From a virus (taxonomy: Duplodnaviria; Heunggongvirae; Uroviricota; Caudoviricetes), in IMG/VR virus record IMGVR_UViG_3300013288_000004, positions 63,360 through 127,359 of that record: DNA of 64,000 bases; one strand, written 5' to 3'. The position numbers and the translations under genes were made by a program. A model generated the notes under the pieces. The model was given only the letters and a program-made list of their open reading frames with translations. It was not told where the DNA came from and ran no database searches. Shown one piece after another: positions 23,674-48,248 of this stretch (position 1 is its first letter; every line of letters starts with the position of its first letter).

Positions 23674-23985
23674 TTAACGGTTCTCTTTTCGGAACCTTTT
23701 GAGACAATTCAGATAGCCATTGATATTTCCGCTACCAATGGGGTTCTGACTATGCACATAAAAATCTGGAATGTCAACATCACAATCCATGCAGATTTCA
23801 ACAAGCCACTTGGCACAATCATAACCATCCTTACCTTCACCTAGATCATGGTCAAAGGAAATGAAAGATGGTAATCCATAGATGGTAATACATCTGAGGA
23901 ACTCGGCATAATTGCGGACAATGATCCAAAGTTCACCATCTTCAGGCGGGAATCGCTCATCATCAAGGAACAGTTTGTAGCTCAT
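23674..23985 (-). CDS. Cyclic-phosphate-processing receiver-domain protein
   Basis: KLFLDDER...ISFDHDLG..KDGYDCAKWL...HSQNPIG. Confidence 0.75.
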   Translation of the reverse strand: MSYKLFLDDERFPPEDGELWIIVRNYAEFLRCITIYGLPSFISFDHDLGEGKDGYDCAKWLVEICMDCDVDIPDFYVHSQNPIGSGNINGYLNCLKRFRKENR

Positions 23986-25727: not shown

Positions 25728-25985
25728 TTAACTAGGAATGATTTCTATGCGATTCCATCGCCAATAATACGGAAACCTTTCATTAAATTCGCGTTCACAA
25801 TCTATGATTGCCATACCCTGAAACAACCTTCGACGACCAGACTCGCGCGTACCCATTCCAAGCGCTTCACGCACATAATCTGGCAAGTTTGTGGGATCAT
25901 ACATGCGCCCAGCCCATTTTACATTGTGAATGACTGGACCGATAATAGTAGGGGTGAATTTGAAATACCAGACTTGTTTGCGCAT
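25728..25985 (-). CDS. Hypothetical protein
   Basis: ORF track. Confidence 0.65.
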   Translation of the reverse strand: MRKQVWYFKFTPTIIGPVIHNVKWAGRMYDPTNLPDYVREALGMGTRESGRRRLFQGMAIIDCEREFNERFPYYWRWNRIEIIPS

Positions 25986-26007: not shown

Positions 26008-26108
26008 TGGTGGGAGAGGTGGGATTCGAACCCACGATGAACAGATTTTTTAATACTCTCGAAAAAGTGTTAAAAAAGTCTGCTGCCTTACCGCTTGGCC
26101 ACTCTCCC
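26008..26108 (-). tRNA. tRNA-Lys(UUU) with a 26-nt insertion in the anticodon loop
   Basis: Full cloverleaf with encoded CCA; stem GCAGA/TCTGT encloses a 33-nt loop that reduces to CTTTTAA on removing a UUCG-capped hairpin. Confidence 0.75.
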
Positions 26109-26155
26109 AGTGTGTAGCCACTATAGCAGATGCTATAGTGGCTTGCAACAACTAT

Positions 26156-26680
26156 TTATGCCACCTTACTCTTGCCAGTGAAATGATGCTTGGAAATGCG
26201 ACCCTTGGTGCTGGCGAGGATACGTTGCTGACCATTCGTCACCTTATTGTGCATCACATCACTCAGCCAGACAACTGTACCACAACTTGCAACATATTCA
26301 TAGCGATTTCGCTGGCGAAGCTTAACCGGAGTCATACCAGTTTCAGCAGCATTGAAGCATCGTTCACCAGTGCAACCGAGCGACACCGCTACACGTTTCC
26401 AATTCTTGCCATGGCCACGATCCCAACCGAAGTGTGCACAGATGATATGCGCGATTTCATGGGGGATGGTATTGTTACAGATGTAGTCAGGATTTTGACG
26501 CGCAAGGGTAAGATTCACCTTGATATGCAAACAGCCACGTGCTTGACCGGCGATCCCACCCATGTTTGGCACAATCTCAAACACCACGCGATGACGGTTT
26601 GCAGTGAATGCGGGGTAAAGACGGCAAGCATTGTCCATGTGACGATTGAAAGCAGCGCGCAGATCAGATTCGATGGTCAT
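26156..26680 (-). CDS. SprT-like zinc metalloprotease
   Basis: TIPHEIAHIIC...HGKNWKRVAVSLG...YVASCG. Confidence 0.85.
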   Translation of the reverse strand: MTIESDLRAAFNRHMDNACRLYPAFTANRHRVVFEIVPNMGGIAGQARGCLHIKVNLTLARQNPDYICNNTIPHEIAHIICAHFGWDRGHGKNWKRVAVSLGCTGERCFNAAETGMTPVKLRQRNRYEYVASCGTVVWLSDVMHNKVTNGQQRILASTKGRISKHHFTGKSKVA

Positions 26681-26746
26681 CGCGTTTGTCCTTGGTTGGT
26701 ATGAATGATTATACACCAGTTACCTGAACAGTAGCTGAATCGATCC

Positions 26747-32332: not shown

Positions 32333-32408
32333 GGTCCTGTAGCTTAAGCGGATAAAGCACTGGGAGTAGTTCCAGAGATGGAGGTTCGACGTCCTTCTGG
32401 GTCCACCA
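32333..32408 (+). tRNA. Degenerate tRNA, anticodon unassignable
   Basis: D-arm GCTT/AAGC, T-arm and CCA present; mismatched acceptor; 6- or 8-nt anticodon loop. Confidence 0.5.
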
Positions 32409-32416
32409 AATAATAC

Positions 32417-32492
32417 GGGCATGTACCGGCAGAGTCTTCTAAGCTCTAGTACCGTAACGGAGTAGATGGGGGTTCGAATCCCTCCATGCCCG
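32417..32492 (+). tRNA. D-armless tRNA-like RNA with an Arg(UCU) anticodon
   Basis: GGGCATG/CATGCCC; AGAGT-CTTCTAA-GCTCT; long extra arm; GGTTCGAATCC. Confidence 0.55.
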
Positions 32493-33971: not shown

Positions 33972-34810
33972 AGCACTCCGAGGAAGAAATGAATCGGTGA
34001 TCGGAAAGAGTATCGCAAGGTGCTCAAAGGTTGACAGCCTCCCTAGTCAGCCACCAGAAATGGCCCATCTAAACAATGGCACAATACACTACCAGAAATG
34101 GTAGGACGAGGATGAAAACTCGTATAAGTTTTACAACATGGTGAGACAATAGCTGGCGAGGCCAACGGTGTAGCTTCAGCTAAGAATCCGCAAGATTCTA
34201 TCACACGCAAACATGTCTAGAACAGATGTTGAATGCCAAGGTATGAGGTTTGAGTCTTAGCGGACGAGGGCGCATACAAAGGGTATAAGGTTGTGGGACT
34301 AGCCTTCATCGGTTAGACACACAAAGGTATACACTAGTACGAGTAATCTTAGCGGATGAAAGGACGTGTGTGGTATTCCGTATAATAAAGTTATATGGAG
34401 TCACGGTGACACGCATCTTAGGAGGTTAGACTTTATCTATTGGTTAGATGTTTTGCCTTATACAAAACGCAGTGGTTCGATTCCACACTAAAACGCAAAG
34501 TTGTCACCGACTGTAACTGAAAGTAGCGTAATACTCAACACTTCGGTGAATTGAGTCAACGTAAAGCTCGCAAGGCGATATGTTGTTCAAGGAAAGTTGC
34601 ACGTAAGGGGTAGCACCCTGCACTGCTCGCAAAGTAGGCGGTAGACAGAACTTGGAATAGGTTATAGTGACACTAGAATTGCCTCTAGTATAAAAAGGCC
34701 GCTATGGTTGATACTTCCTTGAGGAAGTGGATAAAAGTGGAACCTGTCGATTAAGCACCGATTGGATAATCACTTGAAAGGCAACCAACGATATGCTATA
34801 ATCTCAGGCA
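33966..34810 (+). ncRNA. Large ornate ncRNA, GOLLD-like
   Basis: About 845 nt free of track ORFs inside a phage tRNA array; many GNRA/UUCG-capped hairpins; embedded tRNA-like domain; family assignment from size and context only. Confidence 0.55.
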
Positions 34811-35498: not shown

Positions 35499-35585
35499 GC
35501 CGCCTTGCCCGAGAGATTGAAGGGAGCACTTTTGTAAGGTGACGACGAAAGTCCATCGCAGGTTTGAATCCTGTGGGCGGCTCCA
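35499..35585 (+). tRNA. tRNA-Thr(UGU) with a class II-like long variable arm
   Basis: CACT-TTTGTAA-GGTG; GAC-GAAA-GTC arm; CCA. Confidence 0.65.
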
Positions 35586-42073: not shown

Positions 42074-42168
42074 TGGTGGTTCTGGAAGGATTCGAACCTT
42101 CACTGTCCGCTAATCTGGCGGCTATGCTCACTTATAAGGTGAGTGTTCTACCGTTAAACTACAGAACC
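42074..42168 (-). tRNA. tRNA-Ile(UAU) with a 25-nt variable region
   Basis: CTCAC-CTTATAA-GTGAG; CCA. Confidence 0.75.
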
Positions 42169-44621: not shown

Positions 44622-45734
44622 TCAATTCTCCGATTCTAGTTGAACATCAGTAATACCGAATTCACGATAGTTCTTCATCATCCAATCCTTCAATCCCATA
44701 TCCTTACCAAGATAAAGATTCATTGCGAGAGGGAATGTGCCATCCTTGAAAGTTTGTTGCGCAAGTATCGCGTAATCTTTCCTCGAAAGCAACTTATTTT
44801 CATCGTAAAACTTCTGCAACTGTGAAGAAATGTGATTGAAGTTAGTACGTACCAAAGTTTCCATTGCAGTGATCTGCTTCATCGCCAGTTCATCATCATG
44901 GAACAGTGAACGCAAGTCATCAGAAGTTTCATACAGACAAGCCTGAAACAGCGCCTTTGGATTGTTTACACTATCTTTACAACGATGAATTTTTGAATAC
45001 CAGTTGTTTTTTATTTTTGCCAATCGACCATCATTAAACAAAACAACGAAACCTTCAACGCCAGTCATATCAAGAATTTCTTCATATGAGCGCATCGTAT
45101 AATCACATGATACCACATATTTTGAACTCAACTGATGTTGAAGAGAAATGTCTGGATATTCTGTATGACCGTTCAACAAGTTGCGTGCGCTTAATACTTT
45201 TAATGAATGTTCCGGATAACGAACCACAATTTGGTTAGAACTTCCGATCCATTCAAAATTTACAGTATATCCATCATCAATATATTCAGAAACAACCATT
45301 AACAAATGATGGTTGCTTAAGAGAAATTGATATGCGTCAACGGCTTGTTGGGAAATGAATGAAGTTTTTGACTTCAAACGAAATCCATGATGCATCGTTG
45401 AATCTTTTACGGTTGAAATCAATGAGCCGTCGAGTTTATCCATATAAAGAACAGCATTCTTTAGATCTAAATCCATTGTGAAATTGTTTTCGTATAGATT
45501 GAAAAACTTTGCAGGCGGAAGACAAACCAAATCCACCGCAGTGTCACCATCCATCAGGAAGGTATGACCACGGCATTCCAGTGCATTCGGGAGGCAGAAT
45601 TCAGTGTAGGATGCCAAACGATAAGTGAACACACGGAAAACCTTACCGTCTACATTCTGATCCACATAGTAGAAAGCTTCGTTCTCACAGAGCTTCATGA
45701 GATCATTGTAAAGAGTCTGCTGGAAGGTGTTCAT
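44622..45734 (-). CDS. rnlA: RNA ligase 1 (T4 Rnl1-like)
   Basis: FTYRLASY, ECRG, PPAKFFNLYEN, KLDGSLI, EGFVV..KIK. Confidence 0.9.
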   Translation of the reverse strand: MNTFQQTLYNDLMKLCENEAFYYVDQNVDGKVFRVFTYRLASYTEFCLPNALECRGHTFLMDGDTAVDLVCLPPAKFFNLYENNFTMDLDLKNAVLYMDKLDGSLISTVKDSTMHHGFRLKSKTSFISQQAVDAYQFLLSNHHLLMVVSEYIDDGYTVNFEWIGSSNQIVVRYPEHSLKVLSARNLLNGHTEYPDISLQHQLSSKYVVSCDYTMRSYEEILDMTGVEGFVVLFNDGRLAKIKNNWYSKIHRCKDSVNNPKALFQACLYETSDDLRSLFHDDELAMKQITAMETLVRTNFNHISSQLQKFYDENKLLSRKDYAILAQQTFKDGTFPLAMNLYLGKDMGLKDWMMKNYREFGITDVQLESEN

Positions 45735-45880: not shown

Positions 45881-47554
45881 TCAAGTGTTTTTTACGAACC
45901 GCAGCTTACCACAGTCCCATAAGCGATAGAATCCATGAGCATGCATGTTTTCTATCTCTGATTTGTTTGGGTCATAATTTTGTAATTTTTTAAGACCGGA
46001 AGTATGTCTCCAACTAAATTTATGCCAAACCTTTCCATCTTTAACCCAACTATAATCAGGTTCAAGCACACTGTCAAGCTTAAATTTTGAATTGTGATAT
46101 AAATCTCCTCCCGACCATCTTAAGTCTGCAAATGTCACTATCTTAGGTTTATCAAATTTGTTTTCAAAATGTGTTAACAATTTGGTAAATCCGCCAACAA
46201 CATTACATGAGGATGCGTATCTATTCAAAACATAATAATCATTGTACTTAATGAAACCCATACATGCAACTAAATCATTGTCACTCATTAAGCCAAAATT
46301 TATGGACGATGGGCCAGATTCTTGTATATGGTACAAATCAAAAAAATTATTCTTATCTTTTGTAGATACCTCACAGATTGTAGTTTTTCTTGCGAATATC
46401 TTACGTTCTTGTGATTTTCCGAATATGTTTAATAATTTTAATTTTACTAAATCATTTTTTTCAGTCCACTCATTTTCGAAGATTGTTATTAGTCGTATTC
46501 CATTATCTTTACATAAATTATATTTGTCAGCATGAAAGTTTTGTGTCTTACCAACTTTTTCACTATGCCAATATACTCCATTATATTCTATCGCTAATGA
46601 TATATCTGGTATGAAGCAATCCAACTCTACGCCTGCTATTTTTCTATAGTTGGGAATCGCGTTTGGAAATGATGATAGCACAAAATCGAAAAGCTCTTTT
46701 TCTCCAGCAGATCTGAAGTAATGTTTAACTTCTATGTTATGCTTAAAACAATAATTAGATACAGTAGTTTGAGTAACATCGATGATTTTGGCTATTTCCC
46801 CCTGTGTCATCTTTTTGTTATGATGCATATCAATCAATATATCTTTTGAATTTAAAACCTCTAATGCTTCGTTAGATAGATTTTTTTGCACATGAAATTC
46901 AACACCATATTTTTGTAAACAAGTCGCTTTATTTTTATTTTTAATCTTATCAGATTGCATAGCATTTTGCGTGCCATATTTTTCTTTATTTGTTTCTTTG
47001 ATCTTATCCTTTATTTCATCTACCATCAGAGGATTAGCAACACCGTAGACTTTCATTGACTTAATAATTTTCTTTTGCTTAACACTATCGGCTTGCGAAG
47101 GGTTGGATACTCCATATTTTTCTTTAACCGTATTCTCTATTTTATCTCGTATTATTTTAGATTGAGATACAAATTCTACGCCATATTTTTTCAAATTAGT
47201 TTTTTTGATACTTTCGCGAATACTACCAACAGATAAAATCTGGCGGGTTCCATATTTTTTCAATACCGCTTTTTCTCTATTCTGTTGTTCTACCTTTCTT
47301 GCACATTCTCTACAATAGTCACTGTATGTGTTTTGCTTTTTTCGAAGAAAAACAACTTGATCGCACAGAGCACATTTTGGTATTGTGAATACTTCGTTCG
47401 TTATGTGCCATGCTCTTACAACCAAAGGAAAATCTTCAGGAACAAAATTAGTTAATCGTTTTAATTCAGCCAACAATAGTGGTCTATTCCTAGCTAACCA
47501 TCCCGGCCAGTTTTTTTGTTTGAATATCTCTCGTAGTTCTTCTTTAACTGTCAT
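45881..47554 (-). CDS. Hef-like putative homing endonuclease: KKYG repeats, PD-(D/E)xK-like domain and C-terminal Mom/GNAT-like domain
   Basis: Repeated (K/E)KYG; ELDCFIPD..LAIEYNGVYWHSE; LNRYAS..VGGFTKLL..TFADLRW. Confidence 0.75.
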   Translation of the reverse strand: MTVKEELREIFKQKNWPGWLARNRPLLLAELKRLTNFVPEDFPLVVRAWHITNEVFTIPKCALCDQVVFLRKKQNTYSDYCRECARKVEQQNREKAVLKKYGTRQILSVGSIRESIKKTNLKKYGVEFVSQSKIIRDKIENTVKEKYGVSNPSQADSVKQKKIIKSMKVYGVANPLMVDEIKDKIKETNKEKYGTQNAMQSDKIKNKNKATCLQKYGVEFHVQKNLSNEALEVLNSKDILIDMHHNKKMTQGEIAKIIDVTQTTVSNYCFKHNIEVKHYFRSAGEKELFDFVLSSFPNAIPNYRKIAGVELDCFIPDISLAIEYNGVYWHSEKVGKTQNFHADKYNLCKDNGIRLITIFENEWTEKNDLVKLKLLNIFGKSQERKIFARKTTICEVSTKDKNNFFDLYHIQESGPSSINFGLMSDNDLVACMGFIKYNDYYVLNRYASSCNVVGGFTKLLTHFENKFDKPKIVTFADLRWSGGDLYHNSKFKLDSVLEPDYSWVKDGKVWHKFSWRHTSGLKKLQNYDPNKSEIENMHAHGFYRLWDCGKLRFVKNT

Positions 47555-48167
47555 CTTCTAATTCTGGAATATTAATCATATTTATGTATTTTTTCTTGAT
47601 TACTTTCCGTAATCCCGGATTAATATGATAGATGTGTTGCATCATATTTGCTCTCATATAATTGCGCATTAGATGTAAATCTTTGTTCATTTCATCTTCA
47701 ACAACATCTAACTTATTGATTTTACAATGATTTTCGAAAACTGATTTTTCTGTTGTCAAAAACGGACGGATGATGTTACCAGAAGTTACAGGGATCAACT
47801 TACCTTCACCATGTAATGAAGACCACACCCACGTTTCTACGGCATCATCGATATGATGACCAGTGATAATCTGTTGATCACATGATCTAAGAAAACGATA
47901 CCTAGCTCTACGCCATGCGTCTTCAAGGGATTGTCCCTTCTCACGTTGTCCATGATAACTAGCCAGAACAATAGGCATTCTGAGTCTATCAGCCAGACGA
48001 CAACATTTATACTCAATGTCTGCCGAGTATTGACATAGATGGTTAAAATGGTATAGGGTGACTTCCTTATTTCCCTTTTTCAGGAAATGTGCGATAGCCA
48101 ATGAATCGACTCCACCGGAAAATGCAACCCCGACTTTGTTAGGAACTTTTACAAGGAAACGGAACAT
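47544..48167 (-). CDS. tilS: Minimal tRNA(Ile)-lysidine synthetase (PP-loop domain)
   Basis: AFSGGVDS, RRARYRFL, TGHHIDDAVET, IIRPFL; start trimmed to MFRF. Confidence 0.85.
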   Translation of the reverse strand: MFRFLVKVPNKVGVAFSGGVDSLAIAHFLKKGNKEVTLYHFNHLCQYSADIEYKCCRLADRLRMPIVLASYHGQREKGQSLEDAWRRARYRFLRSCDQQIITGHHIDDAVETWVWSSLHGEGKLIPVTSGNIIRPFLTTEKSVFENHCKINKLDVVEDEMNKDLHLMRNYMRANMMQHIYHINPGLRKVIKKKYINMINIPELEDDS

Positions 48168-48175
48168 GATTATAT

Positions 48176-48248
48176 CGCCTCGGGTGAGATTTGAACTCAC
48201 GATCACAATTTTAGAGAAAGTCGCTTTAGGCCACTAAGCTACCGAGGC
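48176..48248 (-). tRNA. Amber-suppressor-like tRNA (CUA) with a weak anticodon stem
   Basis: GCCTCGG/CCGAGGC; D and T arms intact; loop CTCTAAA; an alternative UCU register has a non-canonical C33. Confidence 0.55.

Follow-up and report, generated by a model that had tools for sequence, protein, structure and literature searches.

Known interruptions of the anticodon loop

In phage T4, tRNA-Lys that has been cut by PrrC is healed by Pnkp and sealed by RNA ligase 1 (Rnl1). In Salmonella and others, intervening sequences within the 23S rRNA are removed by RNase III, as Burgin et al. reportedly found in 1990. Here we describe an element that invites comparison with both systems, a 26-nt hairpin that interrupts the anticodon loop of a phage tRNA gene. 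The gene occupies positions 26008–26108 (minus strand) of a 64,000-nt stretch of DNA (hereafter the window), which corresponds to positions 63,360–127,359 of IMG/VR record IMGVR_UViG_3300013288_000004; the record is a complete virus genome of 306,759 bp with direct terminal repeats, and the phage is uncultured. What we find is best explained by a functional tRNA-Lys(UUU) gene with a 26-nt mini-intron that would be spliced by proteins between nucleotides 36 and 37. We think it likely that proteins remove the insert to yield a working tRNA, and we give an even chance to the narrower proposal, in which the hairpin is cut out by RNase III of the host and the loop is closed again by a phage ligase such as Rnl1.

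The gene shares with the T4 repair system its tRNA species, loop and ligase family, and an anticodon-loop break sealed by Rnl1, established for T4, is proposed here as well. The T4 break is inflicted by the host, 5′ of nucleotide 34, and leaves cyclic-phosphate ends, whereas we propose a programmed removal of 26 nt that would require no healing. With the 23S rRNA intervening sequences the mini-intron would share excision by host RNase III of a hairpin lying within a stable RNA gene. The rRNA pieces work without ligation, however, whereas a tRNA would have to be sealed once nicked in the anticodon loop. Group I introns also interrupt the anticodon loops of tRNA genes in the bacterial world, but they are hundreds of nucleotides long and self-splicing, in contrast to an insert of 26 nt.

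Protein-spliced tRNA introns are known from archaea and eukaryotes, where a bulge–helix–bulge (BHB) motif is cut by EndA or TSEN and the exons are joined by RtcB or Trl1 (PMC4090602). Like these, the mini-intron is small, lies in the anticodon loop, pairs with the anticodon and, on our proposal, depends on proteins. It differs in having no BHB, with splice sites that are 2 nt apart in a continuous helix, and in that the split varies from 34/35 to 36/37 among its relatives whereas BHB introns are mostly found at 37/38. EndA and RtcB were not detected in the phage genome, which is a weak negative. The nearest published report concerns the Lak megaphages, whose short tRNA introns were called 'enigmatic' and are given no mechanism in the passages of that report used here (Devoto et al. 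2019, PMC6784885). In both cases short conserved inserts, too small to self-splice, occupy the anticodon loops of phage tRNAs, and by description, rather than by sequence, the Lys insert belongs with the Lak class (PMC6784885). The Lak insert described in those passages has a tRNA-like shape, in contrast to ours, and they propose no RNase III-like design, junction rule or link to a ligase. Our literature search found no proposal for splicing of phage tRNAs by RNase III or Rnl1, and there is a substantial chance that the mini-introns reflect a new splicing pathway.

Structure of the interrupted tRNA gene

A preliminary description of the window, made from the letters and their open reading frames (ORFs), had noted a canonical CCA-bearing tRNA with a UUCG-capped hairpin in its anticodon loop, and both observations are confirmed here. 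The Rfam tRNA model (RF00005) matches the gene over the full model (positions 1–71), scoring 58.5 bits where the gathering threshold is 29. ARAGORN misses the gene in its default mode but reports a 75-nt tRNA with a 26-nt insert when introns are allowed. The tRNA has a 7-bp acceptor stem, a D arm, a 5-bp anticodon stem, a 5-nt variable loop, a T arm, A73 and an encoded CCA. Its anticodon loop comprises 33 nt, which the minimum-free-energy fold zips into a helix that extends the anticodon stem and is capped by UUCG. This fold is a cloverleaf with one long, extended anticodon arm (–36.1 kcal/mol, z = –4.6), and none of 200 shuffled sequences folded as well. C32 forms a 1-nt bulge; otherwise the fold and the pair table have the helix running unbroken across both junctions.

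With the junctions placed as argued below, the 5′ exon (26074–26108, minus strand) consists of tRNA nucleotides 1–36 and ends with the anticodon UUU (26074–26076), and the 3′ exon (26008–26047, minus strand) runs from nucleotide 37 to the CCA. Both assignments follow the junction rule of the intron family and an uninterrupted UUU tRNA found in the same slot of two related loci (L011 and L012). Between the exons lies the mini-intron (26048–26073, minus strand), a hairpin of 10 bp that is capped by UUCG and whose 2-nt 3′ tail is paired to anticodon nucleotides 35 and 36; it is defined by the sequence, the pair table and covariation, and alleles of it are present in loci L013, L017, L021 and L022. 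The mini-intron has no coding capacity. At 26 nt, it has no room for the P3–P9 core of a group I intron (~200 nt or more), it lacks the pair of 3-nt bulges that contain the splice sites of a BHB on either side of a 4-bp helix, and an Rfam scan of the window returned no intron family.

A family of hairpin introns with common geometry

Homologous hairpins interrupt tRNA-Arg, a Trp-type tRNA, tRNA-Asn and tRNA-Pro in addition to the Lys gene. When ARAGORN was run with introns over the whole phage genome, two further split tRNAs were found, one of which has a 28-nt hairpin and a body (A1–U72, G73) and loop that fit tRNA-Trp. Adjoining this Trp-type gene, outside the window, is a tRNA-Asn(GUU)-type gene (genome positions 141017–141142, minus strand; L027:518–643) with a 51-nt, tRNA-shaped insert that contains a T-arm-like hairpin and represents a class distinct from the hairpin family.

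The tRNA-Arg members occur in cultured phages. Aeromonas phage Ah1 carries an unannotated interrupted tRNA of 102 nt (MG250483.1, 102760–102861), and homologues are present in avDM12-TAAL, Aeh1, PX29 and the AsFcp phages. In its D arm, anticodon stem and T arm, the Ah1 gene is nearly identical to a tRNA-Arg(UCU) of Klebsiella phage RaK2 that has no intron and has the anticodon loop CUUCUAA. Because of this loop, a single junction is allowed in Ah1, after nucleotide 36, and it leaves the last two intron bases paired with nucleotides 35 and 36. We also note that the Aeh1 gene (AY266303.2, 114904–115008) is labelled tRNA-Glu(UUC) in GenBank and the PX29 gene (GU396103.1, 101162–101261) is labelled tRNA-Lys and joined from two pieces, although both bodies match tRNA-Arg(UCU). 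These labels and the omission in Ah1 look like annotation problems. tRNA pseudogenes are listed in the 2006 Aeh1 paper, which does not discuss inserts. Ah1 has two more unannotated tRNA-like genes (MG250483.1, 84975–85093 and 85248–85359, both minus strand; L030) with 42–47 nt inserts of another kind; one of them is called Val by ARAGORN, and Val is missing from the annotated Ah1 tRNA set.

Searches with a pattern of the shared core added the Asn and Pro members. Two IMG/VR records contain a tRNA-Asn with the family hairpin. Among the eight IMG/VR matches, L035, L036 and L040 have no tRNA and L039 falls outside the family. A scan of 596 Gb of prokaryote genomes gave 69 matches, comprising 62 chance matches outside tRNAs, six ordinary archaeal introns and one new family member, a tRNA-Pro on a Flavobacteriales metagenome-assembled contig with a tRNA array.

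All members share a common architecture: (i) the introns are 26–28 nt long; (ii) counted from the 5′ splice site, pairs 8, 9 and 10 are U–A, U·G and U–A; (iii) a tetraloop or triloop follows pair 10 or 11 and (iv) a 2-nt 3′ tail pairs with the last two exon bases. A simple junction rule, in which the cut is placed 8 bp 5′ of the invariant U·G with a 2-nt 3′ stagger, gives a 7-nt loop and the expected anticodon in every member. The stagger is deduced from junctions that restore 7-nt loops, and is independently fixed only for tRNA-Arg, through the RaK2 homologue. Applied to the window gene, the rule gives an intron at 26048–26073 and the loop CUUUUAA. Applied blind to the Pro gene, which ARAGORN labels as a stop-codon tRNA, it gives a 27-nt intron and the loop UUUGGGG, in agreement with C1–G72 and A73. 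The tRNA bodies fit the anticodons derived in this way for Lys, Arg, Trp and Asn (G73) as well. Lys and Arg are split at 36/37, Trp and Asn at 35/36, and Pro at 34/35; measured from the hairpin, the geometry is constant.

Covariation was examined in an alignment (A2) of eight sequences, which are related to one another and from which the structure was itself derived. Paired cells make up 93.3% of this alignment, compared with 78.4% in shuffles (none of 500 reached the observed value) and 45–56% when the partners are slid. Ten of the 19 pairs have changed on both sides, and the covariation score is 0.509 against 0.229. Pairs 8–10 are invariant, and covariation links the anticodon to the two final bases of the intron.

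Proposed mechanism and match to RNase III substrates

Escherichia coli RNase III makes a double cut that leaves 2-nt 3′ overhangs with 5′-phosphate and 3′-OH ends (Pertzev and Nicholson, PMC1540722). Good activity requires at least 11 bp of helix from the cut to the tetraloop, and the minimal substrate uR1.1 releases a 28-nt stem-loop (PMC1540722). The same work defines a distal box, consisting of a U–A pair and a stringently required U·G, and G–C antideterminants at positions 2 and 4 of the proximal box; G–C at position 2 or beside the scissile bond blocks binding or catalysis (PMC1540722).

In the mechanism that we propose, the intron would lengthen the anticodon stem of the precursor into one long helix, in which nucleotides 33 and 34 pair with 38 and 37, anticodon nucleotides 35 and 36 pair with the last two intron bases, and the 10 intron base pairs and the UUCG loop follow. 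This helix is laid out as a minimal bacterial substrate, and host RNase III would cut both strands with a 2-nt 3′ stagger, releasing the 26-nt hairpin. The tRNA halves would remain held together by the cloverleaf, with a 3′-OH at U36 and a 5′-phosphate at A37, and a T4-type ATP-dependent ligase such as the phage Rnl1 would reseal the 7-nt loop CUUUUAA. No healing would be required, because ends of the RNase III type are the substrate of ATP-dependent ligases. We infer from sequence that the Lys precursor is transcribed, cut by such an enzyme and ligated.

The family agrees with RNase III substrates in several respects. U·G at base pair 9 and U–A at base pair 10 are present in all eight sequences, as in the distal box, whose placement at these pairs comes in part from the uR1.1 product sequence considered below. 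Base pair 3, which corresponds to position 2 of the proximal box, is A–U or U–A in all eight and base pair 1, which corresponds to position 4, is never G–C or C–G, which leaves the helix free of the antideterminants, and on the opposite side of the cut the anticodon stem carries the helix onward. The Arg (Ah1 and Aeh1), Trp, Asn and Pro members have 11 bp, and the window Lys allele has 10 bp plus UUCG. The likeness to uR1.1 extends to a hairpin of about 11 bp with a tetraloop, to U·G and then U–A as the 9th and 10th pairs, to A–U-rich sequence near the cut and to the 2-nt 3′ overhang. The predicted stem-loop product of the mini-introns is 26–28 nt long, compared with 28 nt for uR1.1, and would carry the same 5′-phosphate and 3′-OH ends. 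The mini-intron differs from uR1.1 in that its hairpin lies in a tRNA anticodon loop, so that the flanks would need rejoining, in that cleavage of the Lys precursor is a prediction and in that the Lys hairpin has 10 bp plus a UNCG loop.

Several considerations weigh against this interpretation. The covariation statistics are inflated by the kinship of the sequences and by deriving the structure from the same set. An exact exon-anchored pattern matched nothing in IMG/VR, and in metagenome contigs it matched two intron-bearing copies only, with no intronless copy of the spliced form. The interrupted Lys gene is not strictly needed, since the phage genome already contains an ordinary tRNA-Lys(UUU) elsewhere. 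Some pairs depart from the E. coli optimum, such as the C–G at base pair 2 in Ah1. Assignment of the distal box to base pairs 9 and 10 draws in part on a uR1.1 product sequence that we take to be correct, the string having been confirmed only in an unrelated methods table. That sequence, with U·G at pair 9 and U–A at pair 10, is consistent with all of the published constraints (PMC1540722). Distal-box preferences may, however, differ between bacteria (PMC1540722), and the comparison here is with the E. coli enzyme. Finally, the window allele has 10 bp rather than 11 bp before the loop, and shortening the minimal substrate by 1 bp reduces activity ~50-fold (PMC1540722). We assume that the U·G within the UNCG loop may replace the missing 11th pair.

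Candidate enzymes

An Rnl1 gene at 44622–45734, reported in the preliminary description, is corroborated by Pfam matches to T4_Rnl1_C (76.3 bits) and RNA_lig_T4_1 (42.9 bits). The gene is on the minus strand and encodes a T4-type RNA ligase 1 with the C-terminal domain, making it a candidate for the sealing enzyme. Rnl1 is likewise present in all three Aeromonas phages (Ah1, Aeh1 and PX29), where it would be expected anyway for T4-like phages. A homologue was not found in the two records with tRNA-Asn; these are 48–62% complete and hence uninformative on this point, and they contain a weak match to the RNA_ligase family in a 427-aa ORF. Three more RNA_ligase (PF09414) matches occur in the window phage, at genome positions 212409–212825, 58050–58652 and 216118–216621, all on the minus strand.

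If the insert is a true intron, a different endonuclease might still remove it, either a phage enzyme that reads the U–A/U·G/U–A core or a metal-independent nuclease that leaves 2′,3′-cyclic phosphate and 5′-OH ends, to be healed and then sealed by Rnl1 or an Rnl2-like ligase. We regard this as unlikely, though it has points in its favor. The invariant three-pair core could equally be the recognition site of a specific protein, and most of the phage genes have no known function. Besides its several RNA-ligase-family genes, the phage encodes a stand-alone 161-aa P-loop kinase and, 2 kb from the tRNA (23674–23985, minus strand), a stand-alone cyclic-phosphate-processing receiver-domain protein (cREC_REC, PF20274, 84.6 bits). 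An RNA-repair (end-healing) role has been predicted for this domain (PMC7824862), and the phage protein could serve in end healing only after a cut that leaves 2′,3′-cyclic phosphate ends.

Our searches of the phage genome, on the other hand, provided no candidate nuclease. Family searches for EndA (PF01974), RtcB (PF01139), RNase III and PNK3P were empty, but these negatives count for little, and leave room for another nuclease, as the same search missed the real Rnl1 that hmmscan finds. A regular expression for the RNase III signature likewise found no RNase III in the genome; its sole match, a 131-aa ORF, has no Pfam match. A bifunctional Pnkp was not found by a search that is insensitive. 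Another enzyme would make a coincidence of the 2-nt 3′ stagger, of the 26–28 nt product and of the position and identity of the U·G and U–A pairs. The family is also distributed over very different phages (T4-like, jumbo and provirus), which is better explained by a universal host enzyme than by a shared phage enzyme.

Decoding or decoy

The preliminary description had left open whether the gene carries a mini-intron, removed by a nuclease with Rnl1 as the sealing enzyme, or encodes a nuclease-resistant or decoy tRNA. The first alternative is supported by the conservation of the insert, the UUU tRNA in the corresponding slot of relatives and the occurrence of the same family in other tRNAs, and the second is disfavored. 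The 101-nt RNA, in which the anticodon is tied up in a helix, could be a decoy or sponge, for example for an anticodon nuclease that targets tRNA-Lys or for RNase III, or the halves or the small hairpin RNA could be the functional products. In either form, we consider a product without a decoding function rather improbable. It would sit well with the normal tRNA-Lys(UUU) encoded elsewhere in the phage, and tRNA-Lys(UUU) is a known target of the anticodon nucleases PrrC, RloC and PARIS. In five tRNA types, however, removal of the insert restores a perfect 7-nt loop, in which position 33 is U and position 37 is a purine, and an anticodon that fits the tRNA body, none of which a decoy would need.

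The distribution of the interrupted genes also argues for decoding, since they provide isoacceptors otherwise missing from the phage sets. The annotated tRNA set of Ah1 has no Arg, and ARAGORN finds no uninterrupted Trp or Asn gene in the genome of the window phage. By these counts, the interrupted genes would fill gaps in the tRNA sets of both phages, Arg in Ah1 and Trp and Asn in the window phage. Moreover, the orthologous slot of a sister lineage holds a UUU tRNA with an ordinary loop.

Conservation of the locus

Related loci were retrieved through homologues of the SprT-like metalloprotease encoded upstream of the tRNA (26156–26716, minus strand; Pfam SprT-like, 44.7 bits), which serves as an anchor of synteny, in a large protein index. 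The same interrupted tRNA stands beside SprT homologues of 56–63% protein identity. Three exon changes are seen among the alleles of the relatives, two of which form a compensatory acceptor-stem pair, and each allele differs at two of the 26 intron bases. The single C·A mismatch of the window allele is U–A in one lineage and C–G in another, and the hairpin loop changes from UUCG to UACG, remaining UNCG throughout. Random decay in relatives, named in the preliminary description as an outcome that would speak against a functional insert, is not what the loci contain. The insert is conserved rather than decaying, having been retained with compensatory changes in three diverged phage lineages.

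In L011 and L012, which represent a further lineage, the same slot is occupied by a 91-nt tRNA without an insert; its loop is CUUUUAA, it has A73 and CCA, and its body has a long variable arm. Directly upstream of the tRNA in the window is a promoter-like site (26120–26148, minus strand) found by a consensus scan, with a –35 element, a 17-nt spacer and a TG-extended –10 element, which is presumably used as a promoter. Immediately downstream is an 85-aa ORF (25728–25985, minus strand; from the ORF list) that has no Pfam match, has a start region conserved in the relatives and is probably co-transcribed with the tRNA. The alignment of the loci (A1) shows that all of them, including the locus with the uninterrupted UUU tRNA, share the promoter-like element and the start of the downstream ORF, and the loci are therefore positional orthologues. 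This positional orthology with a UUU tRNA supports the UUU reading and argues against decay. We also note that the UUU tRNAs of L012 (3063–3153) and L011 (1360–1450) combine A73 with a class-II-like body, in which the variable arm is long and the D arm is Ser/Leu-like.

These data bear directly on whether the gene might be dead or selfish, inactivated by a small insertion remnant, for example of a homing-endonuclease element, and carried neutrally. HNH homing-endonuclease genes do crowd the tRNA regions of the genome, the mini-intron codes for nothing and its spread between tRNA genes is unexplained, but exons and intron have stayed nearly invariant while the neighboring protein diverged, the changes that did occur are compensatory and a dedicated promoter-like site has been conserved, which makes neutral carriage very unlikely.

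Several other searches for relatives were negative. The 2.5-kb region had no blastn match among GenBank phages, and a protein-based SprT search of viral contigs found nothing. Xanthomonas phage Xoo-sp13 has an ordinary, unannotated tRNA-Lys(UUU) at about 34600–34675 of MN047793.1 (L004:1465–1540).

Anticodon register and tRNA identity

The anticodon is ambiguous from the sequence of the gene alone because the insert lies between a U run and an A run, and removal of 26 nt is compatible with UUU, UUA, UAA or AAA. ARAGORN labels the gene Phe(AAA). The earlier statement that removing 26 nt restores CUUUUAA thus describes one valid register among several, and the Lys(UUU) call made with it, although not fixed by the sequence itself, is supported by synteny and by the family geometry. 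UUU arises in only one of the possible splice registers, and the uninterrupted orthologue and the junction rule both favor that one. The tRNA has A73, which is compatible with lysine identity, and AAA is the main lysine codon of the phage (52.6 per 1000 codons). The D arm is similar to that of tRNA-Gln.

An ochre-suppressor (UUA) reading was suggested by the two other split tRNAs of the genome, which break after nucleotide 35, and by a tRNA with a CUA anticodon. This idea was dropped, since the standard code reads well, with long ORFs covering 85% of the genome and no alternative code performing better, and TAA is the main stop codon, ending 208 of 375 long ORFs compared with 25 of 375 for TAG. 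Splicing to UUA (by a blunt cut), UAA (Leu) or AAA, for which the flanking runs, the ARAGORN label, the Gln-like D arm and the CUA-anticodon tRNA can be cited, is extremely unlikely given the fit of the standard code with TAA as its commonest stop, the UUU tRNA in the orthologous slot, a junction rule that is anchored by the Arg case and yields UUU, and an A73 that suits lysine. The amber-reading CUA tRNA (window 48176–48248, minus strand) overlaps the start of a PP-loop TilS-like gene (47544–48206, minus strand; ATP_bind_3, 105 bits).

Other RNA features of the window

A full-length GOLLD RNA (34363–34810, plus strand; RF02032, 198 bits) lies inside the main tRNA cluster. Two tRNA genes are over-long, which is unusual for class I tRNAs, a tRNA-Ile(UAU) of 95 nt (42074–42168, minus strand) with a 22-nt hairpin in the variable region and a tRNA-Thr(UGU) of 87 nt (35499–35585, plus strand). 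Weak Rfam tRNA matches of 38 bits each at 32333–32405 and 32417–32492 (plus strand), not called by ARAGORN, may be aberrant tRNA-like genes.

Implications

Taken as a family, the mini-introns could represent a third kind of tRNA splicing in bacterial viruses, besides self-splicing group I introns and the BHB/EndA system. In this proposal, to which we give slightly less than even confidence, mobile or ancient hairpin introns of 26–28 nt mimic an RNase III site, and their removal would be carried out by host RNase III, with the hairpin rather than the tRNA body as the reference from which it measures, together with a T4-type ligase from the phage.

Phage tRNA sets are miscounted, because default tools miss or mislabel the interrupted genes, and the mature anticodon can be predicted by placing the cut 8 bp 5′ of the U·G with a 2-nt stagger. 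The question is also accessible at the bench, since cultured Aeromonas phages carry the family and the RNase III of their hosts is E. coli-like.

If the proposal is correct, a housekeeping nuclease and a phage ligase would together make up the first pathway in the bacterial world in which tRNA splicing depends on proteins. The T4-type RNA ligase 1 would gain a routine biosynthetic role beyond the repair of damage, infection by the phage would be needed for the interrupted tRNAs to mature, and there would be an explanation for the short introns of large phages that have been called 'enigmatic'.

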